From Burkholderiaceae bacterium (GTDB taxonomy: Bacteria > Pseudomonadota > Gammaproteobacteria > Burkholderiales > Burkholderiaceae_E): a DNA stretch of 64,000 nucleotides. The stretch spans positions 20,042 to 84,041 of the forward strand of contig JAHDXY010000001.1 in assembly GCA_023384005.1 (NCBI GenBank). Reading direction: 5' to 3'. Under the pieces are notes generated by a model. It saw nothing but the letters and a program-made list of their open reading frames with translations, ran no database searches and was not told the origin of the DNA. Every line of letters starts with the position of its first letter. Position 1 is the stretch's first letter. Position numbers and translations under genes: made by a program. Shown here piece by piece: positions 9,425 to 62,637 of this stretch.

Positions 9425-9453
9425 TTTCTAACTTAAACCGCTTGCCCGCACAA
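9425..9453 (-). promoter_or_regulatory. sigma70-like promoter candidate
   Basis: Minus strand: motif, 7 nt, TTGTGC, 17 nt, TAGAAA. An SD-bearing leader runs to the ATG at 9388. Confidence 0.4.
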
Positions 9454-9460
9454 TAATATT

Positions 9461-9474
9461 TGCAATTGATTGCA
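9461..9474. repeat. palindrome-family copy
   Basis: TGCAATTGATTGCA (1 mismatch). Between hairpin 9476-9509 and the promoter candidate. Confidence 0.85.
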
Positions 9475-9475
9475 C

Positions 9476-9509
9476 GAAAAAGGCCCCCGGCAGAGCTGCC
9501 AAGGGCCTT
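9476..9509 (-). terminator. candidate intrinsic terminator after 9539-10729
   Basis: Minus strand: AAGGCCC-(16-nt structured loop)-GGGCCTT followed by TTTCG. Lies just upstream of motif copy 9461. Confidence 0.4.
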
Positions 9510-9538
9510 CACGACAACTGCCCAAACGGACAGCCGGT

Positions 9539-10729
9539 CTACTCGTCCGACTCTTCGATCTCGACGGAGATGTTGGTCGTCGGAAACGCCTTCTCCAGCG
9601 CCTCCAGGGCGGCTTCCAGGCCCATCTTCTGCAACCGCTGGGTCATCGTCTGGCCGCCGAGGAAGTCGAGGCAGACGAACTCCAGAGCCGCCGTGTCGAC
9701 CGACGTGCCGCTCTGCTCCTTGGCCTTGGCGATGGCGGCCTCGATCGTCGCCTTCTGGTCCTCGTGCACCTTGAAGGTCTTGGTCGTGACCGTCTTCGCA
9801 CTCTGATCCTCGAGGGCCTTCGGGGCGTCCTTGGCCTTATGCCCCTTGACGGTCTCGATCAACTGCAGGGTCGTCTGCGAGTTCGCAAGCGAGACCCACT
9901 CGTCGACGTTCTCGATCGTCAGGACCTCGGCGATCTCCTTGAGCTTGGTCCAGCCAAGGTCCTTGACCTTCTCCCAGGGCACCTTGCTTTCGGCGAGGTG
10001 ATTGTAGATCGACACCCAATAGGCCGCCCGGCGGTAGTGCATGCCGAGCTCCTTCTCGACATACTCGCGGAACGACGCATAGGGCTCGTACCAGCCGTTG
10101 GCCTGGATCACGGAGAGCACGCCGCCGAGCTTGAACAACGTCATCTCGGTTTCGTTGTTCAGGGCCGTGACGACCGCGCGGGCCTCGTTCTCCTTCATGT
10201 TCTCGATCTCATGCACGAGATCGGAGAGCACGTCATCGCCTGGCGTCTCGATCGTACCCGTCTTGGCAGTCTTGCCAGTCTTGGCCACCGCCTTGCCGGG
10301 TTTCTTGGACTTGGCCGGCTTCTCAGCCTTCGACACCAGTGCCTTCCCTGCTTGCTCTGGAGCCTTCATCTCCGGGGCAGGCTCCGGCTCCGCCGCCGTC
10401 GTGTCAGACGCGGCTTCCTCGGCTTGTTCAGGGGCCTGTTCAGTCTCGCCGTCGTCGGCCTCAGCGAACTGCTCATTGAGCCACGCCCGCTTTTCGTCGA
10501 CCTTCATCTTCGCCCAGCCTTCGGGCACCTCGATCTCGTGCTCCGCGACGAGAGCATCGAGCTCCTTGCTGGACATCTTGTCGACGTCGACCACGACGGC
10601 CTCACCGTCATCCTTCTCCGCGGCCGGCTGCTCAGCCACTTCCGCGGCATCGGGCTTCTTCTCCAATTCCTCTTCGAGAGCGGCTGTCTTGCCACCTTTG
10701 AGAAGAGAAAGACTTGCTGCGCTTGACAT
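9539..10729 (-). CDS. acidic protein with C-terminal DNA-binding-like domain (paralog of 5797-6324)
   Basis: 396-aa ORF with GGAGGG upstream. The N-terminal half is Glu/Asp/Ala/Lys-rich. The C-terminal block contains RRAAYWVSIY and DLGWTKLKEI. Confidence 0.65.
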   Translation of the reverse strand: MSSAASLSLLKGGKTAALEEELEKKPDAAEVAEQPAAEKDDGEAVVVDVDKMSSKELDALVAEHEIEVPEGWAKMKVDEKRAWLNEQFAEADDGETEQAPEQAEEAASDTTAAEPEPAPEMKAPEQAGKALVSKAEKPAKSKKPGKAVAKTGKTAKTGTIETPGDDVLSDLVHEIENMKENEARAVVTALNNETEMTLFKLGGVLSVIQANGWYEPYASFREYVEKELGMHYRRAAYWVSIYNHLAESKVPWEKVKDLGWTKLKEIAEVLTIENVDEWVSLANSQTTLQLIETVKGHKAKDAPKALEDQSAKTVTTKTFKVHEDQKATIEAAIAKAKEQSGTSVDTAALEFVCLDFLGGQTMTQRLQKMGLEAALEALEKAFPTTNISVEIEESDE

Positions 10730-10817
10730 TCGTTGACACCCTCCTGGTCTTGTGGGTCGGGATTTCCCGGCGAGACATGCCGGGCGGGCTTATGCTGAAA
10801 TACCAGTCTACCTTCTG

Positions 10818-10831
10818 TGCACTTAATTGCA
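10818..10831. repeat. palindrome-family copy
   Basis: TGCACTTAATTGCA (1 mismatch). Between stop 10844 and start 10729. Confidence 0.85.
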
Positions 10832-10843
10832 AATCTCTTTTCG

Positions 10844-17811: not shown

Positions 17812-17825
17812 TGCAATTAATTGCC
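17812..17825. repeat. palindrome-family copy
   Basis: TGCAATTAATTGCC (1 mismatch). 50 nt before start 17761. Confidence 0.85.
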
Positions 17826-17845
17826 AGTATGCCTTCCGGGCTGAA

Positions 17846-18856
17846 TTAGTCAAGCAGGAGATCATCGAGTTTTACAATTCCCGAGAGCAATTCCGCAATT
17901 TCCTCCGGAGAACAAACACCAGGGTCCTTTCGGCCCTTCGGCGGCTGCAAATGATGGATTACGTGATCTTCCTGCAGGAACTTGTCCACCTTTGATCGGC
18001 CGGCGTCACCGCCCTTTCCACGATCGAGGAATGTGATCCATTCCAAAGCATCGGCCATACGGCGCAGCTTCTCGAAACTCGGATTGGAGAACAAGGGGCT
18101 GACCACATTCCGGTAGACGCGATACGCCGAGGCAAGGTCGAACGGGCCTTCCACCACCAGGATCGGCTTCGTCAGGTCGACCCAGCTCTCTCCCAGCCAA
18201 TACAACGGGTTGTTCTTACCGGCCTGCGTGTACATGCGGTATCTGGGGTCGACCCCACTTTGGATCGCGCGACCGTGCAGTCCGACCAGGCGTTCATTGA
18301 AGTCGCGAACGGGGAAACAGACCCGCTTCTCCTTCGTGTCCGCATGTAAGTCGAGAGCGTTCGCTACGGCGGCGGGGACCTTGCGCTCGGCCAGATAGTC
18401 CACCGCCCAGCCAATCTCATGCCAGACCGGGAAGCTGTCGAGCCACCATTCGGGGAAGTAGTGCCGCCCTTCTTTAGGGCCGAACAGCATCTCCTCGATG
18501 CCGGGACTGTCGAAGTCGAACTCTATCGCCTTCTCGGCTTCGTCGACGAGCTCCAGCGCCTGGCCCCACTTCGCGTCGACATGGCAAGCCTGCTTGTTCA
18601 TGTGGCGCATGGCAATGATCAGGGAGCCCAAGGTGCCGTGCCAGCCGCACGCGAAGCAGTTCACTGCAGGGTCACCTGCCTCGATCCTGACGCCGAAGAC
18701 CTCGGGTCCGCTATGGCCGTTTTCATGCCGCCAATGCTCGAGAGGACAGCGGCTGATGACCCAGCCGGTTCGCTTGTGCGCCTGAATGTTCTGGGTCCCG
18801 AGCAGCTTGAGGCATTCCACGATCTTCTCGAGCTTCATGCGTAATCCTTGTGGCAC
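17846..18856 (-). CDS. DNA primase (zinc finger + Toprim)
   Basis: 336 aa. Zinc-finger-like CPLEHWRH...CFACGWHG; Toprim motifs VVEGPFD and FLDRGKGGDAG. Confidence 0.7.
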   Translation of the reverse strand: MPQGLRMKLEKIVECLKLLGTQNIQAHKRTGWVISRCPLEHWRHENGHSGPEVFGVRIEAGDPAVNCFACGWHGTLGSLIIAMRHMNKQACHVDAKWGQALELVDEAEKAIEFDFDSPGIEEMLFGPKEGRHYFPEWWLDSFPVWHEIGWAVDYLAERKVPAAVANALDLHADTKEKRVCFPVRDFNERLVGLHGRAIQSGVDPRYRMYTQAGKNNPLYWLGESWVDLTKPILVVEGPFDLASAYRVYRNVVSPLFSNPSFEKLRRMADALEWITFLDRGKGGDAGRSKVDKFLQEDHVIHHLQPPKGRKDPGVCSPEEIAELLSGIVKLDDLLLD

Positions 18857-19480: not shown

Positions 19481-19960
19481 TCAGGCCCTCTCGACCACCT
19501 TGAAGCTGCGGGTTGTACGGTTCTCCTTGATGACCTCCCCGCGTTGCGGGAGCGTCAGGTAGGCGTCGATGTCCTTCAAGGCCACCTTGGCGCACTTGTA
19601 GAACAGGTCATTGCCCATGAGCTTCTGGACCTTCTTCAGGTCCTTGATCTCGCGGGACGTGCCCCTCTTGCCGATCTCCAGACGGAAGGATGCACCAAGC
19701 TCCTCGCGCTCCGCGTCGTCACCAGCCTCGATCTCCTCGATCTTGGCTTTCAGCTTCGCCACGGCGTCGTTGTACGGCTTCAGCTGCTCCTGGAGCGTCT
19801 TGATCTGTTTGTTGATCTTCTCGGCTTCCTGGCCGAGCGTTCCGACATTGTCGATCAGCTCTGCGAAGTCGCTCAACATCTCGTCGGGCTCGGGCTTGAC
19901 GAGTGTGGGCTTCTTTTTGGTCAGGACGATTGCCATGTCACCCTCCGTGGTTTCCGACAT
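19481..19960 (-). CDS. hypothetical coiled-coil protein
   Basis: 159-aa ORF. The alternative ATG at 19936 has GGAGGG upstream. Confidence 0.55.
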   Translation of the reverse strand: MSETTEGDMAIVLTKKKPTLVKPEPDEMLSDFAELIDNVGTLGQEAEKINKQIKTLQEQLKPYNDAVAKLKAKIEEIEAGDDAEREELGASFRLEIGKRGTSREIKDLKKVQKLMGNDLFYKCAKVALKDIDAYLTLPQRGEVIKENRTTRSFKVVERA

Positions 19961-19966: not shown

Positions 19967-19994
19967 AGGCTATCTGAATGCCGGTGAGTTGCAA
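19967..19994 (-). promoter_or_regulatory. sigma70-like promoter candidate
   Basis: Minus strand: motif, 7 nt, TTGCAA, 16 nt, TAGCCT. Confidence 0.4.
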
Positions 19995-20001: not shown

Positions 20002-20015
20002 TGCATTTAATTGCA
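20002..20015. repeat. palindrome-family copy
   Basis: TGCATTTAATTGCA (1 mismatch). 4 nt after the DnaB-like stop; a promoter candidate follows. Confidence 0.85.
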
Positions 20016-21306: not shown

Positions 21307-21878
21307 TGGGAGCCTCCCACCTTTACGAAGCTCTGATCAATCAGGTTCTTCATCGGCATGCCGTACTCCTTGCCGAGCGCTGCCAGGTCCGGCGCGTAGA
21401 CGATCGTTTGCTGGCCGGCGATCTGGCGGGACAGCAGCAGGTCGTAGAGGGCCGACACCTGCCAGGCAGCAATGTGTCCGCCGTCGCTGGCCGGGTGAAA
21501 GAAATTCGGGATCAGCAGGCAAGTCAGCTGGGGCATCGACTGCCCTGCTACCGTATCCAGCACCGACCCGAGCGTCATCACGCGAGCCCGGATGAAGTTG
21601 CGGACGAGACAGCCGGCGATAGCCGCCATTCGCTGGTCGATGGCGTCCACGCCGGACTTCTTCGTGTAGCAGAGGCCAGAGACCTTCCCGTGGCTGGCCA
21701 TATGCTGGCGGAACTTTCGGAGGTAGCCGATCTCGCTCTTCGTCACGTCAGGCGGCAGCGGAGAGCAAATCCAGTGCGGCTGCACGCCGGCATCACGGGC
21801 GAAATTGTCGATGTCGGCAACAAGGCGGTCGTGCACGTTCTTGTCGAGCACGCCGGAGGCGTAGGGGTCGAGAGGCAT
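21303..21878 (-). CDS. hypothetical protein (positional helicase-loader candidate)
   Basis: 191-aa ORF, translationally coupled between the initiator and DnaB. No P-loop seen. Confidence 0.45.
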   Translation of the reverse strand: MPLDPYASGVLDKNVHDRLVADIDNFARDAGVQPHWICSPLPPDVTKSEIGYLRKFRQHMASHGKVSGLCYTKKSGVDAIDQRMAAIAGCLVRNFIRARVMTLGSVLDTVAGQSMPQLTCLLIPNFFHPASDGGHIAAWQVSALYDLLLSRQIAGQQTIVYAPDLAALGKEYGMPMKNLIDQSFVKVGGSH

Positions 21879-22906
21879 CAGAATTTGTCCTCACCGAGAA
21901 TGTTCATCAGCTCCGCGTGGGTCTGAGGCACGTAGTCGTCATCACCGGGTTTCGGCTTCGGCTTCTGTGAAATTAATTGCACGGACTTGGCAACAACCTT
22001 TTTCGGCGACGACGCCTCCTGCGGAGCCTTCTTGGGTTGGGATGCGAGGAACAGATTTACAGCAATGCCGGCGTGTTTCAAGAGGAAATCTACATTAGGA
22101 TCCAACGGCGTCGTCTTGACCCCTGCAGCCGACTCCACCTCCTTCGTGAACTCCAACCAGTTCATCAGCACATGGCGGAGAACAGTCTCTGCCTTGCCTG
22201 CGGGACACTTGGCGCGGAACAGCTTCAGCTGGCCGTATTGCTTCGAGGTCAGCTGGGGAACGTACTTCTCGAGCTCCTGCGCTATCGTGGTCTTCCAGAC
22301 GTACTCCAGAGCCTTCACGGAGTCGGGCTGGTGTAGCTTCCCGCCAGCTTTGAATTTGTTCAGTGCATCCGCAACTGTCGCGGCGTTTTTCTCTTGGTCT
22401 TTGTTTACCATTCCCTCTTTCCCGCCTTCTTGTTTCTCCGCGGGAGACACACTGGCATGCGTCAGCATGCTAACTCCCTGTGATTCTCCCTGTGATTCTC
22501 CCTGCATATACGAAGTATATGAAGCCGTGCTTGGAGACACGCATTGGGCGGTGTCGTTTGACACCTCCTGCCCAGGGTCTTCTCCGTCTTCTCGAGCCGC
22601 CGTTTTCAGGGCTTCTGTGCACTTGTTCGTGACCAGGACGTGCATGACATTCTTGCCGTGGAACAGGTGCTGGCTTGTTTGAATCAGCCCCTGCTGCCGG
22701 AGCTTGGACAGCCCGTCCTTCACCTGTTGATGTGACAGCCCCGTCTCGAACTTGATCTCAGAGTAGGGCTTCGCGATCCAAAGGCGGCCGTTGAACTCTC
22801 GGGTCGGCTTCCAGAAGCTCAGCCTGTAGAGAATGATACCCGACACGGGCGATCCGGCGACGTGCACACACCGCCCGATGTGCGGGCGCTCCATCTTCTT
22901 TGACAC
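21878..22906 (-). CDS. putative replication initiator (winged-helix N-terminus)
   Basis: ORF track 21878..22969. GTG at 22906 follows GGAGG. wHTH-like LSHQQVKDGLSKLRQQGLIQT. Contains the iteron/AT-rich cluster at 22440-22570. Confidence 0.55.
   Translation of the reverse strand: MSKKMERPHIGRCVHVAGSPVSGIILYRLSFWKPTREFNGRLWIAKPYSEIKFETGLSHQQVKDGLSKLRQQGLIQTSQHLFHGKNVMHVLVTNKCTEALKTAAREDGEDPGQEVSNDTAQCVSPSTASYTSYMQGESQGESQGVSMLTHASVSPAEKQEGGKEGMVNKDQEKNAATVADALNKFKAGGKLHQPDSVKALEYVWKTTIAQELEKYVPQLTSKQYGQLKLFRAKCPAGKAETVLRHVLMNWLEFTKEVESAAGVKTTPLDPNVDFLLKHAGIAVNLFLASQPKKAPQEASSPKKVVAKSVQLISQKPKPKPGDDDYVPQTHAELMNILGEDKF
21968..21981. repeat. palindrome-family copy (intragenic)
   Basis: TGAAATTAATTGCA (1 mismatch). 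Inside the initiator CDS, coding VQLISQ. Confidence 0.75.
22475..22521. repeat. 2.5 x 12-bp direct repeats plus AT-rich inverted repeat (origin candidate core)
   Basis: TCCCTGTGATTC TCCCTGTGATTC TCCCTG, then CATATAC-GAA-GTATATG. Lies inside the initiator gene linker (codes GESQGESQG). Confidence 0.6.
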
Positions 22907-23721: not shown

Positions 23722-24945
23722 CTAACCGCCCGAAGGCAAACTTTTGGCGGTCAGTCTCTTGACGAACGAGTAGACGCCCTTGGTCAGCGCTGCCTGCGAG
23801 ACGGTGGGCGGATTGGTCCCCTCGATGTTCGAAGTCGCCATGGCATCGGCGACGATCTTCTTGATGGCGGGATGGTTGTCCGGGAACGCCTCTGAATCGA
23901 AGGTCTTGAGCACCGAATGAACGAACGCCGGGGCCTGGCTCTCGTCGAGCCCTCCGAACCACATCACCTGATCGATGCGTCCCTCGCGATAGAGCTCCCT
24001 GGGCAGGCTTTTCGCCTTGTTGGTTGTCATGACCACGAGCACACGGGAACGCCTCTCAGCGAGCCACCAGAGCAGCTGGGACAGCATCGTGGACGTGGTC
24101 CCCGAGGTATCGTTCTGCGTGGTGGCGAATACCTTCTCGACCTCGTCCAGCAGCGCGATGCAGGGTTCCTCGTGGTCGAGGCGGGACAGGTTCGTCAGCA
24201 GGTTCTGCTCGGACTGGCCGACATACTTGTTCTTCGTCCCGCCGATGTCGACGCGGTAGAGCGGCACCCCGATCTGCTCGGCCATCCATTTCGAGGCGGC
24301 CGTCTTGCCGACGCCGGGCGGCCCGTCCAAGAGCAATCCTCTCGGGAGCAGTCGAGCGTCCTTGCCGGTCAGGAAGAACTGCTTCTCCTTCCCGACCCAC
24401 TTCACAAGGCTCGGAGGCGGCTGGTAGAAGCTCTGCTTCGTGTCGACCTGGGTCAGGCCGCTGGACGCCTGGAAGCTCGATTTGCGAGTCTCCATGAGGC
24501 CCTGCACGGTGAGGCTCTTGTCCCGTGCCATCGTCAGGCGAGCGAGCTCGGCGGCCTCCTTGATCGTGCATCCCCCGAGGCCGCGCAGCAGCTCCTCCGC
24601 CTTCTTCGCATCGTCCACGACCTCGGTCATGAACTTCATCATCAGGGATCGCGGGACCGGGACCTCGCCGGCATCGAACATCGGTTCGACCATGGCTGGC
24701 GGATTGACGACCACGAGGGTGCTCTCGTGCGACACCATTTTCTCGTAGAGCGGGAACAAGGGCAGCTCCACCTTCTTCGATGTGCATACGAAGGTGTAGA
24801 GCTGCTTCTTGGCCAAGGGCGTGTTCGGCTGCCACGCGATCGGCGTTCGCTTCGTGATCTCCTTCAGAACCTCGTGCAGGTTCATGCTGTCGCGCGTGGT
24901 GACCGCGACAACGGGCAACTGGGCTTGGATGGCGAGTTTTAGCAC
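23722..24945 (-). CDS. AAA+ ATPase (classical FtsH/Cdc48-type module)
   Basis: 407 aa. Walker A LLDGPPGVGKT, Walker B ALLDEVE, and the second region of homology MTTNKAKSLPRELYREGRID. Confidence 0.8.
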   Translation of the reverse strand: MLKLAIQAQLPVVAVTTRDSMNLHEVLKEITKRTPIAWQPNTPLAKKQLYTFVCTSKKVELPLFPLYEKMVSHESTLVVVNPPAMVEPMFDAGEVPVPRSLMMKFMTEVVDDAKKAEELLRGLGGCTIKEAAELARLTMARDKSLTVQGLMETRKSSFQASSGLTQVDTKQSFYQPPPSLVKWVGKEKQFFLTGKDARLLPRGLLLDGPPGVGKTAASKWMAEQIGVPLYRVDIGGTKNKYVGQSEQNLLTNLSRLDHEEPCIALLDEVEKVFATTQNDTSGTTSTMLSQLLWWLAERRSRVLVVMTTNKAKSLPRELYREGRIDQVMWFGGLDESQAPAFVHSVLKTFDSEAFPDNHPAIKKIVADAMATSNIEGTNPPTVSQAALTKGVYSFVKRLTAKSLPSGG

Positions 24946-24977: not shown

Positions 24978-25005
24978 ACTATGCCAGTGATACTTGCCGG
25001 ATCAA
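24978..25005 (-). promoter_or_regulatory. sigma70-like promoter candidate
   Basis: Minus strand: motif, 8 nt, TTGATC, 16 nt, CATAGT. Upstream of the AAA+ gene. Confidence 0.35.
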
Positions 25006-25013: not shown

Positions 25014-25027
25014 TGCAATTAATTGCG
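25014..25027. repeat. palindrome-family copy
   Basis: TGCAATTAATTGCG (1 mismatch). 5 nt after stop 25033; a promoter candidate follows. Confidence 0.85.
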
Positions 25028-25032: not shown

Positions 25033-25380
25033 CTAACGAAAGTGACTCAACAACGAATCCCACCAGGACGTGATGGCGACACCCAGCGCGCCGCCGCCCA
25101 TGCCGGCCATGGCAAGCGCGCCGATGCCACGCTGCTTCCATGCCTTCACCTCGTCGATGACGGGCATCACATCCTCACCGACATCCTTCTTCACGGAAGC
25201 TATGCCGAGCTCCACCTTTTCGGTGCGATGCGAGAGCTCGGCCAGTTTGGGTTCCAGAGATTCGAGTCGCTTCTCGATCTTGACATTCACCTGGGAGATG
25301 TCTTGCCGAAGATTCTTGACCTCCGCCTTGAGGCTCCCCAGCACTTCATAGATGTCATTCAGGTCACCGGCCATACCCAT
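25033..25380 (-). CDS. coiled-coil protein with C-terminal hydrophobic segment (lysis-region accessory)
   Basis: ORF track 25033..25605. Start taken at MGMAGDL. C-terminal GIGALAMAGMGGGALGVAI. Confidence 0.45.
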   Translation of the reverse strand: MGMAGDLNDIYEVLGSLKAEVKNLRQDISQVNVKIEKRLESLEPKLAELSHRTEKVELGIASVKKDVGEDVMPVIDEVKAWKQRGIGALAMAGMGGGALGVAITSWWDSLLSHFR

Positions 25381-27153: not shown

Positions 27154-27167
27154 TGCAGTTAACTGCA
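27154..27167. repeat. palindrome-family copy
   Basis: TGCAGTTAACTGCA (2 symmetric mismatches, still a perfect palindrome). The central TAA is the stop of 27159-27380. Confidence 0.8.
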
Positions 27168-41593: not shown

Positions 41594-41654
41594 ATTCTGC
41601 CTCCGGGCTGCATGGCGGTTCTCACGCCGCCAGATTACGCAGCCGGCGCTGAAT

Positions 41655-41668
41655 TGCAATTAATTGCA
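41655..41668. repeat. palindrome-family copy, perfect
   Basis: TGCAATTAATTGCA. 1 nt after stop 41670 and 61 nt before the ATG at 41593. Confidence 0.9.
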
Positions 41669-44558: not shown

Positions 44559-44572
44559 TGCAATTAATTGCA
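44559..44572. repeat. palindrome-family copy, perfect
   Basis: TGCAATTAATTGCA. 61 nt before the ATG at 44497. Confidence 0.9.
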
Positions 44573-44633
44573 TCGCGATGCCACAGGGTCAACGACGGAC
44601 ACCACCAGTGGATTACTTGCGAGCCCAGCTCAG

Positions 44634-46915: not shown

Positions 46916-46951
46916 CAACAAAAACAGGGCCAGAGTATTTCATCCGGCCCC
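46916..46951 (-). terminator. weak terminator-like hairpin after the major capsid gene
   Basis: Minus strand: GGGCC-(14-nt loop)-GGCCC followed by TGTTTTTGTTG. Confidence 0.35.
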
Positions 46952-46955
46952 GTCA

Positions 46956-46969
46956 TGCAATTAATTGCA
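46956..46969. repeat. palindrome-family copy, perfect
   Basis: ATGCAATTAATTGCAT (16-bp palindrome). 8 nt after the capsid stop, then a hairpin and T-run. Confidence 0.9.
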
Positions 46970-48001: not shown

Positions 48002-49561
48002 TCACGCGACTGCGCGTCGGGAGTAGGCGGTGTCCAGGAGGGGCGGGGTGGACGATTCGGTCTTCTTGACCGAAGCACCGTCGCCGCCCGCGTCGTTGAA
48101 CACGGTTCCGTTCAGCGCTTCGTCGGCCTTGCGGACCAAAGTGTCCACCCGGTCGACCCGCTCACTGAGCGCACCCACCTCCTTCTTCACCTCAAGGACA
48201 GCTCCCTCGAATGATTTCTGGAGAGCTGCAATCGCGGTCACGACGTCCGAGTAGTCTGTCTTGGTCACATCCTTGAGGTCCTTCTCCTGCCCGGCAGCCT
48301 GTTGGGCTCCCGCGCCGGATTGGTTGTCGGGCAGCTTGTTGCCCTTACCCTTCTTGCCGACGTCGCCGTCACCTTCCTTACGAACGCCGCCGAGTTGGCC
48401 GAGGCCGGAATCACCGTCGGGAATGGAGCTTCCCGTAGTGCCACCGTTCTGCGTGGAGTTCGCGGCATCATCTGCCGAAGCACGGGCTGTCGCCTGCTGG
48501 CTGTCGGTCGGTGCAGCTGCGAAGCCATCTCCGTCACCAGGCTCGAAGCCATCCGGGTCAGGCAGGCCGGCGACCGCCTCCTTGCGAGCCTCGACCGGGC
48601 CTTCGCTCGGATTGCCTGTCGTAGACTCTCCGGGCACGGCATTGACGGCGGTGTTCGCCAAGTCGTCAGCGGTCGCCCTCGGATCGGTCCCGGTGCCATC
48701 GCCGAGCTCGAACCCAGCACCGGTGCCGTTCTTGCCGGCGTCAGCCTTCTGGGTCTCGGTGACAGGCGGCTCGTCACCGGGCGGTGTCGGAGCAGCTTCG
48801 GACGTGGCCTCATCCTTCGCAGACCGGGCCTTACCCTTCCCGGCCTCCTTATCGTCCTCCTCGTCCATTTCCTTCTCCGAGGCACCCGCCTTGCCCTTGG
48901 AGCCCGTCGCGGCCTTTTCGACGCCCTGGGCGACAGCGATGTCTGCCTTGAACGCCTGCACCGGCACGGAGCCGAGCAGCATGGTCATGTAATCCTTGAA
49001 GGCATCGATTGCGGAGGCAACCTGCTGGGACGCTTCAGCGGGGGACGCTGCCTTGTAGAGGATGTTCCCGATGGTCGTGCCGAGCGCCTCCTTGGCGACG
49101 CACATGGACGGGTAGACGCCCTCGGTGGCCATCACCACGCTGAAGTCCGTCGAGCTGTAGGCGTAGCTATCGAAGGTCTTCTTGAGATGGCTGATGACCA
49201 GGCCCACCTCGTCGGAAACCTTGAAGACAACCGTGTCCTCGGCCTTCTCGGCATCTGCCTTGGCAACCGTGACGATCCCGTCCTTCTCGGACTTGACGAA
49301 TTCCTTCGGCTCGAGACCTGCCGACTTGAAGATCGCGGCGACCTGATTGAGATCGGCTCCCTTCTTGATGACGGCAGCGACGATTGCAGGCTTGGGGTCG
49401 GTCTTCTTGAAGAGAGTCCGGCCAATCTTGTGCAGGTCCAGCATTGGTTCATCCTCTTTCGTGATCCGAAACGGGATACGGTTCGCCCCCCGCTTGACCA
49501 GCGAGACAAAATTCACGTCCGTGTTGACCAGCTCGGTTGCCTTAATTTGCAATTTGGGCAC
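48002..49561 (-). CDS. scaffold-like protein
   Basis: ORF track 48002..49603. GTG at 49561 follows GAGGGAG. N-terminal VSLVKRGANRIPF, then a long Ala/Gly/Asp/Glu/Lys-rich region. Confidence 0.6.
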   Translation of the reverse strand: MPKLQIKATELVNTDVNFVSLVKRGANRIPFRITKEDEPMLDLHKIGRTLFKKTDPKPAIVAAVIKKGADLNQVAAIFKSAGLEPKEFVKSEKDGIVTVAKADAEKAEDTVVFKVSDEVGLVISHLKKTFDSYAYSSTDFSVVMATEGVYPSMCVAKEALGTTIGNILYKAASPAEASQQVASAIDAFKDYMTMLLGSVPVQAFKADIAVAQGVEKAATGSKGKAGASEKEMDEEDDKEAGKGKARSAKDEATSEAAPTPPGDEPPVTETQKADAGKNGTGAGFELGDGTGTDPRATADDLANTAVNAVPGESTTGNPSEGPVEARKEAVAGLPDPDGFEPGDGDGFAAAPTDSQQATARASADDAANSTQNGGTTGSSIPDGDSGLGQLGGVRKEGDGDVGKKGKGNKLPDNQSGAGAQQAAGQEKDLKDVTKTDYSDVVTAIAALQKSFEGAVLEVKKEVGALSERVDRVDTLVRKADEALNGTVFNDAGGDGASVKKTESSTPPLLDTAYSRRAVA

Positions 49562-50246
49562 TGAGCACTCCCTCGACGAACGAGAAGCGATGCGCATGGT
49601 CATCGGTCACTTCGGTGACTGTCCCACGCAGTATCTTGTGAACATGCCCGTCAGGACCCGGACCCGTCAGACCACCCAGAAACCGCCCGTCCTCGTCATA
49701 CTTGACGTAGAACGTATGCTTGTGGCCGCCGACCTCATCGGTCTCCCCATCGATAGCTTGCGGCAGATCGATCTCGATCACTTTCTCGACGCGAACACCG
49801 ATGCCATCGAAGGAGAAACCGTTGAGCTCTCCCGTCTTCACCAACTCCCACGTGACGAGATCCGGTACTTTCACACCGAGGACCCAGCTACCTGGGATGA
49901 AGATCGAGTCGTCATCACGAGCGATGAAGCTCTCGACGACGTAGCAACCAGATACCTCCTGCGAATGGTTCAGGTCGATCTTGTCAACCAGGCCCTTGCG
50001 CATGAACGCGTAGGCCATCTCCTGGATGGACTCTCGCGTCATGAAGTCTCCCTGGCTGTCAGGGAAACCGGGAGCATAAACCTCGCCGAAGACAAGCTGC
50101 TGTTCGTCGTCGGTCTTCTTGATCGAGACGCTGTGGGGATCGTTGGAGACAACCGACGCAGCGAAGGGATCGGAAGCGAAAGCCTCCGTCACTGCACCAC
50201 CGCCTGTTGCTTCCCTGAACACCGCTCCGCCTCGATCTGAACGCAC
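49542..50246 (-). CDS. XkdF-like prohead protease
   Basis: 234 aa. QQLVFGEVYAPGFPDSQGDFMTRESIQEMAYAFMRKG...DLNHS. The C-terminus carries three HxH motifs. Confidence 0.6.
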   Translation of the reverse strand: MRSDRGGAVFREATGGGAVTEAFASDPFAASVVSNDPHSVSIKKTDDEQQLVFGEVYAPGFPDSQGDFMTRESIQEMAYAFMRKGLVDKIDLNHSQEVSGCYVVESFIARDDDSIFIPGSWVLGVKVPDLVTWELVKTGELNGFSFDGIGVRVEKVIEIDLPQAIDGETDEVGGHKHTFYVKYDEDGRFLGGLTGPGPDGHVHKILRGTVTEVTDDHAHRFSFVEGVLSAQIAN

Positions 50247-50260: not shown

Positions 50261-50288
50261 AGAATACAAATTCAGAAGGCTACATCAA
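50261..50288 (-). promoter_or_regulatory. sigma70-like promoter candidate
   Basis: Minus strand: motif, 8 nt, TTGATG, 16 nt, TATTCT. Confidence 0.4.
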
Positions 50289-50296: not shown

Positions 50297-50310
50297 TGCA
50301 ATTAACTGCA
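50297..50310. repeat. palindrome-family copy
   Basis: TGCAATTAACTGCA (1 mismatch). Between stop 50346 and start 50246; a promoter candidate follows. Confidence 0.85.
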
Positions 50311-55802: not shown

Positions 55803-56222
55803 TCACGCTGCAGCGGTCCATTTCGCCTTCCCCCGCCGGTCAAAAGATTTCACGATCGCCTTGTCCAGAAGAGACCGTGCACCTGCCGAGGTCGCCGACT
55901 GGTTTCTCTCCAGCCAACCCTTGACCTGCCCCATTTTTGCGAGGTTAAGGACATGCACCTCGATCTGAGTCTTGAGGTTCCTGTCGTTGCCGGCAATCAT
56001 CAGCAAGGCTAGGTTTCCCATCACCTTGACGATGATCATGTGATTTGAATTGTTCAGGAGGGCGCTGACGATCTTCACCTTGATCGGAACTGAAAGACCA
56101 CCGATCTCGAGATTGAATTGCTTCTCGCCCCGCAGCTGCGGCTCCGCACTCTGCAATTCGATCTTCATGTTGAGGCTGTCGGCCAGGGCGTAGACCAGCG
56201 ACTCTCTCACTCCGTTTCCCAC
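55803..56222 (-). CDS. hypothetical protein
   Basis: 139-aa ORF overlapping the upstream gene by 16 nt. Confidence 0.5.
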   Translation of the reverse strand: MGNGVRESLVYALADSLNMKIELQSAEPQLRGEKQFNLEIGGLSVPIKVKIVSALLNNSNHMIIVKVMGNLALLMIAGNDRNLKTQIEVHVLNLAKMGQVKGWLERNQSATSAGARSLLDKAIVKSFDRRGKAKWTAAA

Positions 56223-56431
56223 ACCAGCTCTCCATTCTTACGTGTGCAGGCCCATCTCCCGAGCGTCACGCCGAAATATGTGACGACGAACTCCAGCCGG
56301 TCAGTCTTCTCGTCGCGCACGACGGTGTGCAGAACGACCGTCTCGTCGGACAAGGCACAGAAGACCGGAGAGGTCTCGATCAGATCGCCGACCTCGAGTG
56401 CTTCGAATTGCTCGACTGTCAGCATCGTCAT
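56207..56431 (-). CDS. hypothetical protein
   Basis: 74-aa ORF with ATGA overlap to the upstream gene. Confidence 0.45.
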   Translation of the reverse strand: MTMLTVEQFEALEVGDLIETSPVFCALSDETVVLHTVVRDEKTDRLEFVVTYFGVTLGRWACTRKNGELVWETE

Positions 56432-57252
56432 GACTTGATCACCTTCATCTCGGGGAGAGGCGTTTCGAGCGGGACCCCGAGGCCCATCAGGATCGCACCC
56501 ATCGTCTTGCTGGCAACGACCATGTCATGGCCGACGTCGAGGTGCAGGCTCGCGTAATCCATGGCCTTGTCGACGTTACCGAACCCGCATGACGCGATGT
56601 TCTCCGTGTAATTCTGCCACGATGGGCCTTCGATCCTGACCGATAGCTTTCCGTTTTGGAAACGAGCCGCGATCCGGACGTCCTTGTTCGCCCCAACGAC
56701 GAAGTAGCGCGATCCTACCGACGTACCTTGCACCGGCTGATACATCATGCTCGCATCACGGAGCTTGACCGGTGCGGCCGACTTCAACTGGGTCAGATCG
56801 AACATGGGCCAGAGCCCCTGCGGCTTGGGCTTCTCAGGTGCCGACTTGATCGGCGGCAGCTTGTTCAGTGCGCTCAGCTGCTGTTCCCATTGCCCCGGCG
56901 TATACATGCTCGCTTCAACGGCGCTGGTCAGCTTCTCGGCCGTCTTGTCCTCGAGCTTGGCTCCGTAAGCCGCTATGAGACCGGAGATTGTGCTACCCAG
57001 GGCGTGGCGTAGGGCCGTCTTCTGAGTTGGAGGAAGCGTCCCAGCATTCAGCTTCTGCAGCTGATCCAGCGTGACTGGCACCTCATGTTGGACAGGCTCA
57101 CCAACGAGCTCGGCGGGGATCGAGAACGTGAACTTGGTCGCCCCCAGCGAGACTTGCACGGGCTTGGACTTCAGCCAGTCATAGAGATCCTGCGGAATGC
57201 CGATCTTCTTGAGGGCTGCCAGCCCGTTCATCGATTTGATGCTAATAGCCAC
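56428..57252 (-). CDS. hypothetical protein
   Basis: ORF track 56428..57270. GTG at 57252 is preceded by AGGAGG. Confidence 0.55.
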   Translation of the reverse strand: MAISIKSMNGLAALKKIGIPQDLYDWLKSKPVQVSLGATKFTFSIPAELVGEPVQHEVPVTLDQLQKLNAGTLPPTQKTALRHALGSTISGLIAAYGAKLEDKTAEKLTSAVEASMYTPGQWEQQLSALNKLPPIKSAPEKPKPQGLWPMFDLTQLKSAAPVKLRDASMMYQPVQGTSVGSRYFVVGANKDVRIAARFQNGKLSVRIEGPSWQNYTENIASCGFGNVDKAMDYASLHLDVGHDMVVASKTMGAILMGLGVPLETPLPEMKVIKS

Positions 57253-57284
57253 TCTATCCTCCTGATCCAAATGGCCTTATCGAC

Positions 57285-57312
57285 ATTCTAACTTGGCCCG
57301 CCGTGAAGACAA
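57285..57312 (-). promoter_or_regulatory. sigma70-like promoter candidate
   Basis: Minus strand: motif, 9 nt, TTGTCT, 16 nt, TAGAAT. The leader has AGGAGG before the GTG at 57252. Confidence 0.45.
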
Positions 57313-57321
57313 GATGAATTA

Positions 57322-57335
57322 TGCACTTAATTGCA
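57322..57335. repeat. palindrome-family copy
   Basis: TGCACTTAATTGCA (1 mismatch). The central TAA is the stop of 57327-57611; a promoter candidate follows. Confidence 0.85.
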
Positions 57336-57611
57336 CTGACACGACCGTAGGGCAAGCTGTCTGCACTCAATCCGTCGTCGCTCGGATCGCATAAAGCTCT
57401 CCTGCAAGGTTCGCGGCGGATCGCACTCGAACAGGTACGTATGCAGGGCAAATTCAATCCCATCGTAGGCGTCGGCGTTGCGGCGGCCGTACCAAGCCTC
57501 CAGACAACACTCTTTGCAGAGCTTGTAGCGCTCATCGTCCGTCCGCTTATTGGGATAGAACTCCTCAAGCGGTTTTGACTTTGCGCAGCGACCGCACGTC
57601 TTCATCCCCAT
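57327..57611 (-). CDS. zinc-ribbon protein
   Basis: 94 aa with CGRC...CKEC pairs. Ends Cys-Asn-TAA inside a motif copy. Confidence 0.5.
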   Translation of the reverse strand: MGMKTCGRCAKSKPLEEFYPNKRTDDERYKLCKECCLEAWYGRRNADAYDGIEFALHTYLFECDPPRTLQESFMRSERRRIECRQLALRSCQCN

Positions 57612-58303: not shown

Positions 58304-58323
58304 CCGCCTTCTCCCTCCTGGAT

Positions 58324-59418: not shown

Positions 59419-59468
59419 CTAACACCCTCCATGGTTTCCAAATGGCGTTGTACTCATACTAATAAATT

Positions 59469-59499
59469 GACGTGTGCAATCAATGAGATAACACACGTC
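59469..59499. repeat. 8-bp inverted repeat in the AT-rich leader of 58324-59418
   Basis: GACGTGTG-(15 nt)-CACACGTC. The loop contains a motif half-site. Confidence 0.6.
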
Positions 59500-59502
59500 T
59501 CC

Positions 59503-59516
59503 TGCATTTAATTGCA
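59503..59516. repeat. palindrome-family copy
   Basis: TGCATTTAATTGCA (1 mismatch). 6 nt after stop 59523. A half-site TGCAATCAAT lies at 59475. Confidence 0.85.
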
Positions 59517-59522
59517 CGTCAA

Positions 59523-60035: not shown

Positions 60036-60076
60036 GCTTTATCGACCCTCCTTGGTCATCCGTTTGCAGTCGGTTG

Positions 60077-60301
60077 TCAGGATAGTTTGATGCGGCTCAC
60101 GTCAAGAACTCGGCCGTCCTCGATCAGCAGAATGAAATCGTTGAACCTCCAGTTGCCTCGCTCGTGGGTGATGGGTGCAGACCGTCGCGCCATCCTGGCT
60201 ATCCGCTTGACCGTGTCGCCGTACAGGCCCGCGTAGCGAGCCTTCTGCACAGCCTCTTCCGTCACCTGGAACTCCCGGAACCTCGTCCCTTTGCCACTCA
60301 T
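60077..60301 (-). CDS. hypothetical protein
   Basis: 74-aa ORF with ATGA-type overlap to the upstream gene. Confidence 0.45.
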   Translation of the reverse strand: MSGKGTRFREFQVTEEAVQKARYAGLYGDTVKRIARMARRSAPITHERGNWRFNDFILLIEDGRVLDVSRIKLS

Positions 60302-60585
60302 GGGCCACTCTTGCTCCGTTTTCGGTAACGATCTCCACGAAGGATTTCGATCTCTTGCGGCGCTTCGATCGCAATACGTATCGCCCCGTATTTGTAGAAG
60401 TCGCCGGCAGATACGAAAACGTCGTCCATGATCTCCTTCGCTTCCGTATCGGTTATCTCAATCTCCTTCTGCTCTCCGGCAAGCCGGACCCAGAACCTCG
60501 CACCGGATTCGATCCTCGTGATGACCACCTGGCGATCCTCCACCCAGAAGTCATCACTCTCCTTCATGCTCAGTACCAAAGGCAT
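60298..60585 (-). CDS. CsrA-like RNA-binding protein with internal insertion/duplication
   Basis: 95 aa. MPLVLSMKESDDFWVEDRQVVITRI and IRIAIEAPQEIEILRGDRY parallel E. coli CsrA [23 protein letters not shown] and VRIGVNAPKEVSVHREEIY. About 35 extra residues lie between them. Confidence 0.5.
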   Translation of the reverse strand: MPLVLSMKESDDFWVEDRQVVITRIESGARFWVRLAGEQKEIEITDTEAKEIMDDVFVSAGDFYKYGAIRIAIEAPQEIEILRGDRYRKRSKSGP

Positions 60586-60596
60586 CTCCGCCTCCT

Positions 60597-60610
60597 TGCA
60601 ACTGGTTGCA
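60597..60610. repeat. palindrome-family variant with GC centre
   Basis: TGCAACTGGTTGCA. The outer arms are kept and the TTAA core is replaced. Between stop 60621 and start 60585. Confidence 0.5.
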
Positions 60611-60620
60611 TCTCATTACC

Positions 60621-62582
60621 TCAATCGGTGAGAACGGAGAAGGCTGCGTAGTCAGCCGGGACGATGACCGGGTCTTCGCTAGAGCCAGTCTCGTGGACCA
60701 CCTTCAACCCCTTCAGCTCCGGCATTTGTGACGCGCGGTCCAGCAGCACCGACACAAAGTTGTCGGGCTCCGTCCCGAAGGCATCGATCAGGTCCAGATC
60801 GGCATCCCGGCACAGGCTAAGCGGAGAACGAATGTCCAGGATCACGTGCTCCAGGCTGGGCAGCGCAGCCAACCCGTTCAGAACCGTCCCCAGCACTTCC
60901 TCAGACCCCCACCAGTAGGCGGCCTGGACCGCGTGCCGCCGATGATCCGCTCCGAGGTCTACGGGGGACGACTCATAAGCCTGCATCTTGTCCAGGCACC
61001 AGCCCACCACCTTCTTGACCTCGGGGCTGCCAGAGCTGTCGATCACCGGCACATCGATCTCGAACCAGACGTTCCCCGTGTTGCCGTCGATCGTAACCTT
61101 CTTGCACTTCTTGGCGGCTTCCATGTCGAGCGCAGTGCAGCCGACCACGCAGGTCTTGTCCATCGCTCGCGCGACTACGGCGGCGTGGCTGGTCGCCCCG
61201 CCTGTCTGGGTCAGGATGCCGATCGCCGCGTTCATGCCGGCGATGTCATCGGGCGTCGTTTCGTGCGTGACGAGGATGCAGGGCTCCATGCAATTAATTG
61301 CGTCGCCCGACGAAAACACCGGCTTCCCGGTCACCACGCCGGGGCTCGCCGGGAGCCCGACCACCTTCGGGTCCGCCTTGAACGACGGATCCAGCATCGG
61401 CCGGCGCACGGCCTTGAACTGCGCCTTAGTCAGCCTCTTGAGCGCCGTTTCCCGGTCAATCACATCTCCCCACACGAGGTCGATTGCGATCTTGAAGGCA
61501 GCCCGGGCCGAACGCTTGCCTACCCGGCTCTGCAGGATGAACAGCTGGCCCTGCTGCACGGTGAACTCCACATCCACCATGTCCTTGTACATATCCTCCA
61601 GTTTGTGGCAGGTCTGAATGATCTCGTCGGCCATCTTCGGCCACTCGCCACCGAGAGACTGCATCTCCTTGAGCGGGCGGGGCGTCCTGATCCCAGCCAC
61701 CACGTCCTCCCCCTGGGCGTTCTGCAGGAACTCGCCCATGATCGAGTCATTGCCTGTCGACGGGTCTCGCGTGAACAGCACGCCCGTCCCCGAGTCGTCG
61801 CCCATGTTGCCGAACACCATGGCCTGCACGTTCACGGCGGTGCCCATGCCCTCGTCGATCTTGTTCAGCTTGCGGTACTCGATTGCCCGAGGATTCATCC
61901 AGCTGTCGAACACCGCCCTGATCGCGGCGCGGAGCTGCTCCTGGGCATCGTTGTCGGGGAACGGGAAGCCCTTGTTCTCCTTGAACGCCTTCCGGTAACG
62001 AGCCACCAGCGAAGACAGGTCTATGAAATCGAGTTCCGTATCATCGACCTTCCCAAGCTCCTTCTTTAGCTTGGCCAGCTGGAACTCGAACACCGCGTGC
62101 GGGACGCCGTAGGCCGTGGAGCCCAGCATCTGGATCAGACGACGCTGGCTGTCCATTGCAGCCCGCTGACCGATGCGATCAGCCCACGCACCGAAGTTGT
62201 CCTCGGTCAGGCCGACATTCAGGATCGTGTCCATCATGCCGGGCATCGAGACCGGAGCGCCCGAGCGAACCGAGACGAGCGGCGTGTACCCGAACTGCTT
62301 GGTCAGCCACTGCATGCCCGCGAAGGCATCGCCCACCACGTCCTTGATGAACTCGTCGCGCTCCTTGCCTTCCAGCTGCATGTAAGCGAGACACAGGTCA
62401 GTCGGAATCGTGAAGCCGGGCGGGACGGGCATGCCGGCCTGGGCCATCATGACGAGAGCCGCGCCTTTGCCTCCCAGATGCTTCTTGGCGAGCTTCTGGT
62501 CAGTTTCTGTCCAATCACAATGACCGGCAGAGAACCTGTAGATCTTGCTTCCCACGTTACCCTCCATGGTTTCTGTGGACAC
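60621..62582 (-). CDS. pyruvate phosphate dikinase-like phosphotransferase lacking the PEP/pyruvate domain
   Basis: 653 aa. PPDK N-terminal ATP-grasp blocks (LGGKGAAL, PLVSVRSGAPVSMPGMMDTILNVGL, NAQGEDVVAGIRTP) and the phosphohistidine domain GGATSHAAVVARAMDKTCVVGC. These are followed by only about 150-170 unrelated residues. Confidence 0.85.
   Translation of the reverse strand: MSTETMEGNVGSKIYRFSAGHCDWTETDQKLAKKHLGGKGAALVMMAQAGMPVPPGFTIPTDLCLAYMQLEGKERDEFIKDVVGDAFAGMQWLTKQFGYTPLVSVRSGAPVSMPGMMDTILNVGLTEDNFGAWADRIGQRAAMDSQRRLIQMLGSTAYGVPHAVFEFQLAKLKKELGKVDDTELDFIDLSSLVARYRKAFKENKGFPFPDNDAQEQLRAAIRAVFDSWMNPRAIEYRKLNKIDEGMGTAVNVQAMVFGNMGDDSGTGVLFTRDPSTGNDSIMGEFLQNAQGEDVVAGIRTPRPLKEMQSLGGEWPKMADEIIQTCHKLEDMYKDMVDVEFTVQQGQLFILQSRVGKRSARAAFKIAIDLVWGDVIDRETALKRLTKAQFKAVRRPMLDPSFKADPKVVGLPASPGVVTGKPVFSSGDAINCMEPCILVTHETTPDDIAGMNAAIGILTQTGGATSHAAVVARAMDKTCVVGCTALDMEAAKKCKKVTIDGNTGNVWFEIDVPVIDSSGSPEVKKVVGWCLDKMQAYESSPVDLGADHRRHAVQAAYWWGSEEVLGTVLNGLAALPSLEHVILDIRSPLSLCRDADLDLIDAFGTEPDNFVSVLLDRASQMPELKGLKVVHETGSSEDPVIVPADYAAFSVLTD
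61289..61302. repeat. palindrome-family copy (intragenic)
   Basis: TGCAATTAATTGCG (1 mismatch). Inside the PPDK-like CDS (DAINC). Confidence 0.75.
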
Positions 62583-62587
62583 GATTC

Positions 62588-62615
62588 ATTCTAGCTTTGG
62601 ACCCGTGAGGCGCAA
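62588..62615 (-). promoter_or_regulatory. sigma70-like promoter candidate
   Basis: Minus strand: motif, 8 nt, TTGCGC, 16 nt, TAGAAT. The GTG at 62582 is only 5 nt past the -10, so the mRNA could be leaderless or use a later start. Confidence 0.45.
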
Positions 62616-62623
62616 GAAGTTTT

Positions 62624-62637
62624 TGCAATTAATTTCG
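62624..62637. repeat. palindrome-family copy
   Basis: TGCAATTAATTTCG (2 mismatches). The central TAA is the stop of 62629-63138; a promoter candidate follows. Confidence 0.75.

Follow-up and report, generated by a model that had tools for sequence, protein, structure and literature searches.

A Palindrome Repeated through a Phage Genome

A stretch of 64,000 nucleotides from contig JAHDXY010000001.1 (assembly GCA_023384005.1, listed as Burkholderiaceae bacterium; forward-strand positions 20,042 to 84,041), here called the window, carries many copies of a 14-base palindrome, six of which lie on the minus strand at a nearly constant distance upstream of promoter-like sequences. This arrangement raises the question of what reads the palindrome and how its effect could depend on its position. 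To judge from its sequence, the DNA is that of a large siphovirus, with Rhodobacter phage RcZahn and Rhizobium phage RHph_TM16 among its relatives; the phage genome measures roughly 100 kb, about 35 kb of which lie beyond the window. The answer put forward here is that the palindrome may be the operator of a two-fold-symmetric DNA-binding regulator and form part of sigma-70-type promoters in a small number of fixed registers, a reading to which we give about an even chance of being right.

Placement and Symmetry of the Palindrome

With up to three mismatches allowed, TGCAATTAATTGCA is found 39 times in the window, against 1.0 copy expected, and its conserved core reads TGCAA-N4-TTGCA. According to heuristic gene calls, 21 of the copies lie between genes, 12 within genes, and 6 across a stop codon, in a window with a G+C content of about 60% and a non-coding share of only 9%. 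Most of the intergenic copies begin 1–12 nt past the stop codon of the upstream gene, and in five of the six stop-overlapping copies the central TAA is the stop codon itself. The palindromes that end the upstream gene in this way are those at 7478, 7966, 8511, 57322 and 62624, and an unannotated coiled-coil open reading frame (ORF) in the 400-bp gap between 26968 and 27372 probably ends in the TAA of the copy at 27154 as well.

The arms of the palindrome are mirror-symmetric and almost invariant, the invariant positions being G2, C3 and A4 together with their mirror images, not the A/T centre. Only the 5' flank, taken in the direction of transcription, is asymmetric, with four bases biased towards G-A-S-R (e.g., gacgTGCA or gagaTGCA), and no bias of this type is seen at the mirror positions 3' of the palindrome. 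All four perfect copies (41655, 44559, 46956, and 53369) have GA directly before TGCA. As RNA, the palindrome would fold into a hairpin of only −2.5 kcal/mol, and 24 changes break the stem on one side, against a single compensatory change. The stable stem kept by compensation that would mark an RNA hairpin or an intrinsic terminator was thus not found, nor was there any Rfam match. Since the arms are symmetric and the changes in the stem go uncompensated, recognition of the DNA by a dimer seems to be favored over an RNA structure.

Promoter Candidates at a Fixed Distance from the Palindrome

The original prediction described six minus-strand sites that share one architecture, namely the motif, 7–9 nt, TTGnnn, 16–17 nt, and a TAnnnT-like hexamer. 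The six sites, at which the minus strand is the coding strand and which are named after the coordinate of their palindrome, are exactly as described (Table 1), and they occur far beyond chance. Each of them combines TTGnnn, a spacer within the range of 16–18 nt and a TAnnnT-like hexamer with a gene downstream, as in sigma-70-type promoters, two of the −10 boxes (TAGAAA and CATAGT) being imperfect. Moreover, the end of the palindrome lies 29–31 nt before the start of the −10 box at all six sites, the start codon of a minus-strand ORF follows 31–39 nt past the −10 box, also at all six, and a GGAGG-type ribosome-binding site (RBS) precedes the start codon at the five sites inspected (9461, 20002, 25014, 57322, and 62624).

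In a position-weight scan, in which the 99.9th percentile over all minus-strand positions was 7.3 bits, the six promoters scored 5.6, 8.0, 9.6, 11.6, 13.4, and 10.5 bits, in order from 9461 to 62624. A promoter match of at least 5.5 bits at a gap of 7–9 nt accompanies seven of the 39 copies (the six and the copy at 7966), where chance would give 0.32 by the genome-wide rate (P = 5e-8) or 0.84 by the intergenic one (P = 3e-5), and none of the 39 has an antisense match at this gap. A stricter consensus scan of 44–64 kb gave no overall excess of promoter-like strings and recovered only the 57322 promoter out of the four sites in this range; thus, the case rests on position relative to the motif, not on absolute promoter strength.

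If transcription is assumed to start 7 nt past the −10 box, the palindrome spans about −56 to −43, with its centre at about −49.5. The fixed upstream position that had been claimed is borne out, while the range given for it, −59 to −44 with a centre at −52, has to be shifted. Directly after the palindrome, the six sites have A-rich bases, giving TGCAAA, TGCAAAA, TGCACAA, or TGCATAA. The hexamer TCAC(G/C)G, reported to follow the −35 box at three sites, is indeed present directly after it at 20002, 57322, and 62624. It is not conserved at the orthologous promoters, is probably no functional element, and is treated as shared ancestry or coincidence. The promoters at 62588–62615 and 57285–57312 also share spacer sequence beyond the core elements (TCACGG ... 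CCAA(A)G(N)TAGAATG), which suggests that one was copied from the other.

Table 1. Palindromes of the window with promoter candidates, in the 7–9-nt register (first six rows) and in other registers (last six rows); ORF, open reading frame.
Site	Palindrome (strand)	Palindrome sequence	Gap (nt)	Promoter candidate or composite feature (strand)	−35	Spacer (nt)	−10	Context
9461	9461..9474 (−)	TGCAATCAATTGCA	7	9425..9453 (−)	TTGTGC	17	TAGAAA	Upstream of ORF 9185–9388; 5.6 bits, weakest of the six
20002	20002..20015 (−)	TGCAATTAAATGCA	7	19967..19994 (−)	TTGCAA	16	TAGCCT	Palindrome 4 nt past stop of DnaB-like gene; would drive ORF 19481–19936, RNase H gene, primase gene
25014	25014..25027 (−)	CGCAATTAATTGCA	8	24978..25005 (−)	TTGATC	16	CATAGT	Palindrome 5 nt past stop of ORF 25033–25374; would drive AAA-ATPase gene 23722–24945
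50297	50297..50310 (−)	TGCAGTTAATTGCA	8	50261..50288 (−)	TTGATG	16	TATTCT	Palindrome upstream of prohead protease operon; would drive protease (49542–50222), ORF 48002–49561, major capsid gene (46978–47955)
57322	57322..57335 (−)	TGCAATTAAGTGCA	9	57285..57312 (−)	TTGTCT	16	TAGAAT	Central TAA is stop of ORF 57327–57611; would drive ORFs 56428–57252, 56207–56431, 55803–56222, DNA polymerase gene
62624	62624..62637 (−)	CGAAATTAATTGCA	8	62588..62615 (−)	TTGCGC (62615–62610)	16	TAGAAT (62593–62588)	Central TAA is stop of upstream ORF 62629–63138; would drive pyruvate-phosphate-dikinase-like gene 60621–62555
59503	59503–59516 (−)		19	59456..59516 (−)	TTGATT	16	TAGTAT	One helical turn further out
41655	41655–41668 (−)			41632..41668 (−)	TTGCAA	16	TAATCT	Right arm of palindrome is the −35 box
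46956	46956–46969 (−)			46923..46969 (−)	TTGCAT	17	TACTCT	Palindrome directly 3' of major capsid gene
10818				10805..10832 (−)	TTGCAA	16	TAGACT	Left arm of palindrome is the −35 box; rest of palindrome in spacer
44559	44559–44572 (−)			44563..44592 (−)	TTGACC	18	A/T centre of palindrome	Palindrome over −10
17812	17825–17812 (−)			17812..17853 (−)	TTGACT	16	CATACT	Palindrome directly after −10; upstream of SSB-like gene

Conservation of the Palindrome and of Its Spacing

RcZahn contains 27 copies of TGCAATYAAYTGCA, and RHph_TM16 has the variant GTGCAACATATTGCAC, in which the centre is CATA or CAAA and the arms are kept. The centre differs between clades (TTAA, TCAA, and CATA, with CTAG as a further variant), and the core TGCAA-N4-TTGCA is common to RcZahn, RHph_TM16, and about 30 metagenomic relatives, most of which carry 4–6 copies per 10 kb, including one contig with 44% G+C. 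The hosts of the motif-bearing clade comprise Rhodobacter, Rhizobium, and Hyphomicrobium, plus one low-G+C host, and no copies were found in the more distant relatives examined (L029, L031, and L032 are among the motif-free contigs). Such confinement to one phage clade fits a factor that is inherited together with the phage.

A pooled scan of the family (1.07 Mb with 313 unique sites, promoters being scored relative to the motif end) yielded 31 sense and 1 antisense promoter-like hits at gaps of 6–9 nt, 10 sense and 0 antisense at gaps of 16–19 nt, and 11 sense and 0 antisense at gaps of 38–42 nt, while all other offsets together gave 35 sense and 37 antisense. The range between 10 and 16 nt is almost empty. 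The further peaks, at gaps of 17–19 and 38–42 nt, lie about 10 and 32 bp from the first, that is, roughly one and three helical turns, as would be expected from a contact that depends on the face of the helix. The centres of the palindrome in the three peaks would be at about −49.5, −59.5, and −81.5, values that rest on the assumed start site.

The six are good candidates for sigma-70-like promoters with the palindrome at a fixed distance, as had been proposed. For every one of them, one or more orthologues show equal spacing, and the sequences of the gap and the spacer have diverged. The layout of the protease promoter (50297) is kept at position 15303 of RcZahn and in at least ten metagenomic relatives, with a gap of 7–8 nt, TTGnnn, a spacer of 16–18 nt, and a TAnnnT-like −10 box, and that of the 57322 promoter, upstream of a gp12-like gene, in seven orthologous contigs with a gap of 6–9 nt and a 16-nt spacer. 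Orthologues of the same layout (given as contig handle and position) are L057:1550 for 62624, L044:201 for 25014, and L046:4702 for 20002, whereas that of 9461 is a probable one (L046:14619: 7-nt gap, TTGCAT, 16-nt spacer, and TACGTT). Across the family, the 7–9-type register is in use at no fewer than 12 independent genomic positions. In RcZahn, the counterpart of 20002 (49725) has its palindrome 17 nt from the −35 box. In RcZahn, strong promoter candidates also occur between genes where the motif is absent, and an activator could be made from these first.

In a close relative (the 92-kb contig IMGVR_UViG_3300025572_000001), about ten perfect palindromes are packed into 1.7 kb (L044:19098-20769), interleaved with CATGTTAAC-like repeats and five tandem GGAGAGTCTCGG units, together with several gap-8/9 promoters for tiny ORFs. 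This cluster resembles an origin or a region of early control.

Registers over and around the Core Promoter

The original prediction also stated that a promoter is lacking behind most other copies, and that the motif is therefore used in at least two contexts. The latter statement stands, several promoter registers existing beside promoterless copies, whereas the former is right only in part. Copies without a possible promoter do exist, 11–40 nt before a start codon or inside genes, but others supply the −35 box (41655, 46956, and 10818), cover the −10 box (44559), or cover the start (17812). These further registers, too, are tied to the direction of transcription.

The 19-nt gap of the 59503 copy recurs in its orthologues, L055:6927 and L057:5191. 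The right arm serves as a −35 box of the form TTGCAn in 30 sense cases and 6 antisense cases across the family. At the copy downstream of the major capsid gene, the −10 hexamer TACTCT sits in the unusually large loop of an intrinsic-terminator hairpin (46954–46923); the motif-bearing relatives have co-varying stems at this terminator and keep TAnnCT or a similar hexamer in the loop, whereas motif-free relatives have ordinary small terminator loops after the capsid gene. This element may be a terminator with a built-in re-start promoter. The layout of the 10818 copy, with the left arm as the −35 box, is matched by L041:6066, and RcZahn has the layout with an 8-nt gap instead (58281). The centre of the palindrome takes the place of the −10 box in 9 sense and 0 antisense cases across the family, TTGACC being conserved at the orthologues of 44559. 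At 17812, where the palindrome follows directly after the −10 box, the start site is thereby covered, and the same layout is found at L042:1697 and L046:7038. Moreover, in three relatives (L019:256/315, L022:7595/7654, and L035:7423/7482), the protease promoter lies between two palindromes that are spaced by exactly 59 bp, one of them 8 nt upstream of the −35 box and the second just after the −10 box. Palindromes over the −35 box, the −10 box, or the start occupy repressor-type positions and, thus, a reading of the motif as a pure activator site is too narrow.

A Proposed Position-Dependent Operator and Its Alternatives

Symmetry dominated by the arms, inheritance within one clade, and sharp sense-only registers point to a dimeric DNA-binding protein that would act on RNA polymerase. 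This regulator would be common to the phage clade and is probably encoded by the phage. At the six sites, the bound dimer could lie beside region 4 of sigma or the C-terminal domain of the alpha subunit, on one face of the helix, and would most likely help RNA polymerase in a class-I-like activation. Registers that recur upstream at intervals of helical turns are a hallmark of contact with RNA polymerase from one face of the helix and are classically activating. The same protein would block RNA polymerase where the operator forms the −35 box or covers the −10 box or +1, which are classical repression positions. The palindrome could then co-ordinate many of the phage's transcription units as a switch whose effect depends on where it lies, in the manner of regulators such as CRP/FNR-type factors, lambda CI, and phi29 p4. 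What the sequences show is the motif with its two-fold symmetry, the promoter-like strings, and the conserved sense-only registers; that a protein binds, that it touches RNA polymerase, and in which register it activates or represses are what we infer from them.

Several observations weigh against this proposal. About one-third of the copies lie within genes or directly abut an RBS, where no promoter fits, and some of the orthologous sites in RcZahn (4175 and 49725) have an altered distance between palindrome and promoter. In addition, the centre, near −49.5, falls at neither of the canonical positions, −61.5 for class I and −41.5 for class II, and the six −10 hexamers are fairly good, so that the promoters may have no need of an activator. 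No binder was found in Pfam and PHROGs scans of about 50 window proteins. Finally, operators over the −35 box, the −10 box, and +1, paired palindromes, and temperate relatives fit a pure repressor equally well.

Such a repressor is the main rival, which we regard as possible and, on balance, rather doubtful. It would be an immunity or shut-off repressor that keeps all lytic transcription units silent, as happens through the dispersed C1 operators of P1 and the stoperators of Cluster A mycobacteriophages. Bound to the copies near −49.5, it would displace the C-terminal domain of alpha or hold RNA polymerase at the promoter, and the copies at gene ends and inside genes would act as roadblocks. 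The many copies that overlap a core promoter element or +1, the decent −10 boxes of the six sites, the two palindromes that flank the protease promoter in three relatives, and the spread of copies throughout operons and into genes, which recalls stoperators, would all follow. Moreover, the more distant relatives DLP5 and DLP3 are temperate, DLP5 being a phagemid (PMC5834331, PMC7326821), and one relative is located inside a 310-kb contig of a Hyphomicrobium metagenome-assembled genome (MAG). However, a repressor has no obvious need for a tight 7–9-bp register with further peaks one and three turns upstream, and two palindromes 59 bp apart are not in phase on the helix, which speaks against looping. 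Neither a repressor nor an integrase was identified among the proteins scanned, and the RcZahn report (PMC8601537) assigns no lifestyle to this closest cultured relative.

The remaining alternatives agree less well with the data. The palindrome could mark gene ends, as a roadblock, an insulator, or a recombination boundary, and lie close to promoters through genome compaction alone, which would suit its frequent position at or 1–12 nt past a stop codon, the many promoterless copies directly before an RBS, and the asymmetric 5' flank. Packing, however, predicts a lower limit with a tail, not a sharp peak at 7–9 nt followed by a nearly empty range from 10 to 16 nt and a second peak at 17–19 nt, and it leaves the copies that serve as a −35 or −10 box unexplained, which makes this account improbable. 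We consider quite improbable, too, that the palindrome is an UP-like cis element, in which the C-terminal domains of host alpha would read the A/T centre (AATTAATT) and the A-rich gap with no dedicated regulator. The span of about −56 to −43 and the A-rich bases directly after the palindrome at the six sites of the window would agree with it. The original prediction had placed the palindrome in activator or UP-element territory, and the position would indeed let a bound protein touch RNA polymerase, but a plain UP element is unlikely given the invariant arms, which contain G/C, and some 30 further copies in the window with no promoter in register. The palindrome thus lacks the form of an UP element, its best-conserved positions being the TGCA arms instead of the A/T centre, which RHph_TM16 alters while keeping the arms; furthermore, the sequence of the gap is not conserved among orthologues, and most copies are outside the 7–9 register. 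An RNA hairpin that closes the upstream message at its 3' end or opens the next one at its 5' end, with a role in processing, stability, or translational control, would account for copies between a stop codon and the next RBS and for the roughly ten RcZahn copies that lie 2–5 nt before GGAG(G). Nevertheless, this is very improbable in view of the folding energy (−2.5 kcal/mol or less), of the one-sided changes and the lack of an Rfam match already mentioned, and of the six sites themselves, where the palindrome is upstream of the predicted start and hence not in the downstream transcript.

For the phages of about 100 kb that belong to the alphaproteobacterial lineages of RcZahn, RHph_TM16, and the DLP5-like phages, we know of no described transcription programme. 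A position-dependent operator would make the motif a concrete and testable map of the programme of this clade, with at least 12 promoter positions and four or five fixed registers, in a layout that is conserved across the cultured phages and about 30 metagenomic relatives. The binder, once found, would define the master regulator of the clade and show whether one protein activates and represses according to position, and the 14-bp operator would then be usable as a portable, position-dependent control element for alphaproteobacterial hosts. The result also offers a functional hypothesis for similar unexplained palindromes of phages, such as those of the Cluster O mycobacteriophages.

Candidates for the Binding Protein

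Among the roughly 50 window proteins, DNA-binding Pfam domains were found only in two Xre-type proteins encoded on the plus strand (790–1473 and 3264–3740). Neither has a homologue in RcZahn or RHph_TM16, which share the motif and, therefore, these proteins are unlikely to read it. Three other candidates were considered and set aside: the product of ORF 21878–22906, whose RcZahn orthologue is annotated as a helix-turn-helix (HTH) protein, resembles a replication initiator of the lambda-O/DnaD type; the "Ogr/Delta-like" protein of RcZahn matches an NrdR-type zinc ribbon; and a small Xre protein encoded after a GNAT gene (RcZahn gp135, TM16 gp118, and L037) occurs in only one further viral contig, which is TM16-like, and its distribution does not follow that of the motif. 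The roughly 50 window proteins and the 10 proteins from relatives that were scanned included none with a PadR domain. To our knowledge, neither the half-site nor the spacing matches the motifs of CtrA, alphaproteobacterial LexA, IHF, FixK/FNR, sigma-54 (−24/−12), or Fur/Mur.

A ParB-like gene adjoins the terminase gene in RcZahn, RHph_TM16, DLP3 (PMC7326821), and a close relative, at a place just outside the window, and two ParB-like proteins of relatives, including that of RcZahn, gave no significant Pfam match. The palindrome could be a parS- or OB-like site for the ParB-like protein of the clade, which would then be a KorB-like global regulator that touches RNA polymerase at phased positions, an idea that we find unlikely. 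If true, 40–60 loaded sites per genome would couple transcription in a temperate phage of the phagemid type to its partition or packaging, and a ParB-family transcription switch would be located within promoters, its site doubling as a −35 or −10 box.

Comparison with Known Systems

Phage operators in dispersed copies are well known, as are phased sites for activators; what is uncommon here is that the site doubles as a core promoter element and that an upstream register near −50 is conserved. Class I sites of the CRP/FNR type, which lie at −61.5, −71.5, and so on, are palindromic dimer sites upstream of the −35 box at positions that differ by helical turns, as the palindrome seems to be, and CRP/FNR-type sites also repress when they overlap the core promoter, those of the FNR type having the same 5-N4-5 geometry. 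However, the predicted centres here (about −49.5, with further ones near −59.5 and −81.5) differ from the canonical −41.5 and −61.5, the half-site TGCAA is that of neither CRP nor FNR, the scans yielded no protein of the CRP/FNR family, and the copies number about 40 per 64 kb, many of them promoterless. The late promoters of P2 Ogr and P4 Delta have a dyad, TGT-N12-ACA, centred near −55 and recognized by a small activator of the phage, which makes contact with alpha. They, too, present a phage-wide dyad at a fixed position upstream of the −35 box of sigma-70 promoters, but the dyad differs in sequence and length from TGCAA-N4-TTGCA, its centre is about half a turn away from −49.5, and no Ogr/Delta homologue was seen in the window. 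KorB of plasmid RK2, a ParB-family repressor, has proximal OB operators immediately upstream of the −35 box. In KorB, as in the arrangement described here, a short palindrome is repeated around the replicon in promoter-proximal and distal positions, there under a global regulator of the ParB family, but the proximal OB operators abut the −35 box, whereas the distance here is 8 bp.

We know of no fixed upstream register near −50 for either the C1 operators of P1 or the stoperators of Cluster A mycobacteriophages. The P1 C1 operators resemble the palindrome in being one site, that of a repressor, dispersed over all transcription units, at promoters and in operons alike. The same is true of the Cluster A stoperators, as summarised in PMC4351075. 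Both are, however, asymmetric, and stoperators are 13–14-bp sites oriented with transcription, whereas the palindrome has a mirror-symmetric core and only its 5' flank is asymmetric.

The closest described analogue is the 17-bp palindrome of Cluster O mycobacteriophages, a dyad repeat of the form TGTTCGG-N3-CCGAACA (PMC4351075). There, more than 30 copies of a short perfect palindrome are likewise mostly intergenic, with about one-third within genes, the binder and the function of the repeat are also unexplained, and the phages carry proteins with ParB-like domains. The sequence and the host phylum are different, and a term search of that paper showed no mention of a fixed register with the predicted SigA promoters. 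A further likeness comes from AphA, a regulator of the PadR family in Vibrio cholerae, whose operator is ATGCAA-N4-TTGCAT and which acts mostly as a repressor from such sites (PMC6855506). The half-site TGCAA and the 4-bp spacing are identical, so that the palindrome has the form of a PadR/AphA operator; AphA is, however, a host regulator of a gammaproteobacterium and, with no PadR domain among the proteins scanned, this apparent resemblance is only a lead. Apart from the AphA consensus, an exact-string search of the literature for the motif returned nothing relevant; term searches returned nothing on such repeats in the RcZahn paper (PMC8601537) and no mention of palindromes or promoters in the DLP3 paper.

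Genome Context and Further Observations

Nearly all genes between 4.4 kb and 64 kb of the window are on the minus strand, and the window is syntenic, in reverse orientation, with about 2.8–65 kb of RcZahn. The gene order runs from terminase through a pyruvate-phosphate-dikinase-like gene, DNA polymerase, portal, protease, and the major capsid protein to the tail genes, the lysis genes, and a block for replication and recombination. The major capsid protein shares 77% identity with its RcZahn counterpart, 65% with that of RHph_TM16, and about 55% with those of Stenotrophomonas DLP5-like phages, and closer relatives by this protein (up to 90% identity) are found among metagenomic viral contigs and in the Hyphomicrobium MAG. 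Rfam and tRNA scans of the window yielded no Rfam families and no tRNA genes.

The left end of the window (1–4400) is unlike the remainder, with plus-strand genes, weaker codon bias, and no RcZahn homologues. Its genes include one for a protein with an ATP-dependent DNA ligase domain (53–676) and those for the two Xre-type HTH proteins, the first of which (790–1473) has two HTH domains, and one copy of the palindrome, at 2687, lies within it. This segment could be a lysogeny or accessory module.

On the minus strand, the ORF at 60298–60585 (95 aa), which is conserved in RcZahn as gp7, matched the CsrA family below threshold (24 bits, with a cut-off of 27; E = 3e-5). In addition, an extended RBS context, (A)CCA(N)GGAGGG, is common to 5' untranslated regions of the window (e.g., 62560–62580 and 19940–19960) and to RcZahn, where ACCAAGGAGGGT is among the most frequent 12-mers.

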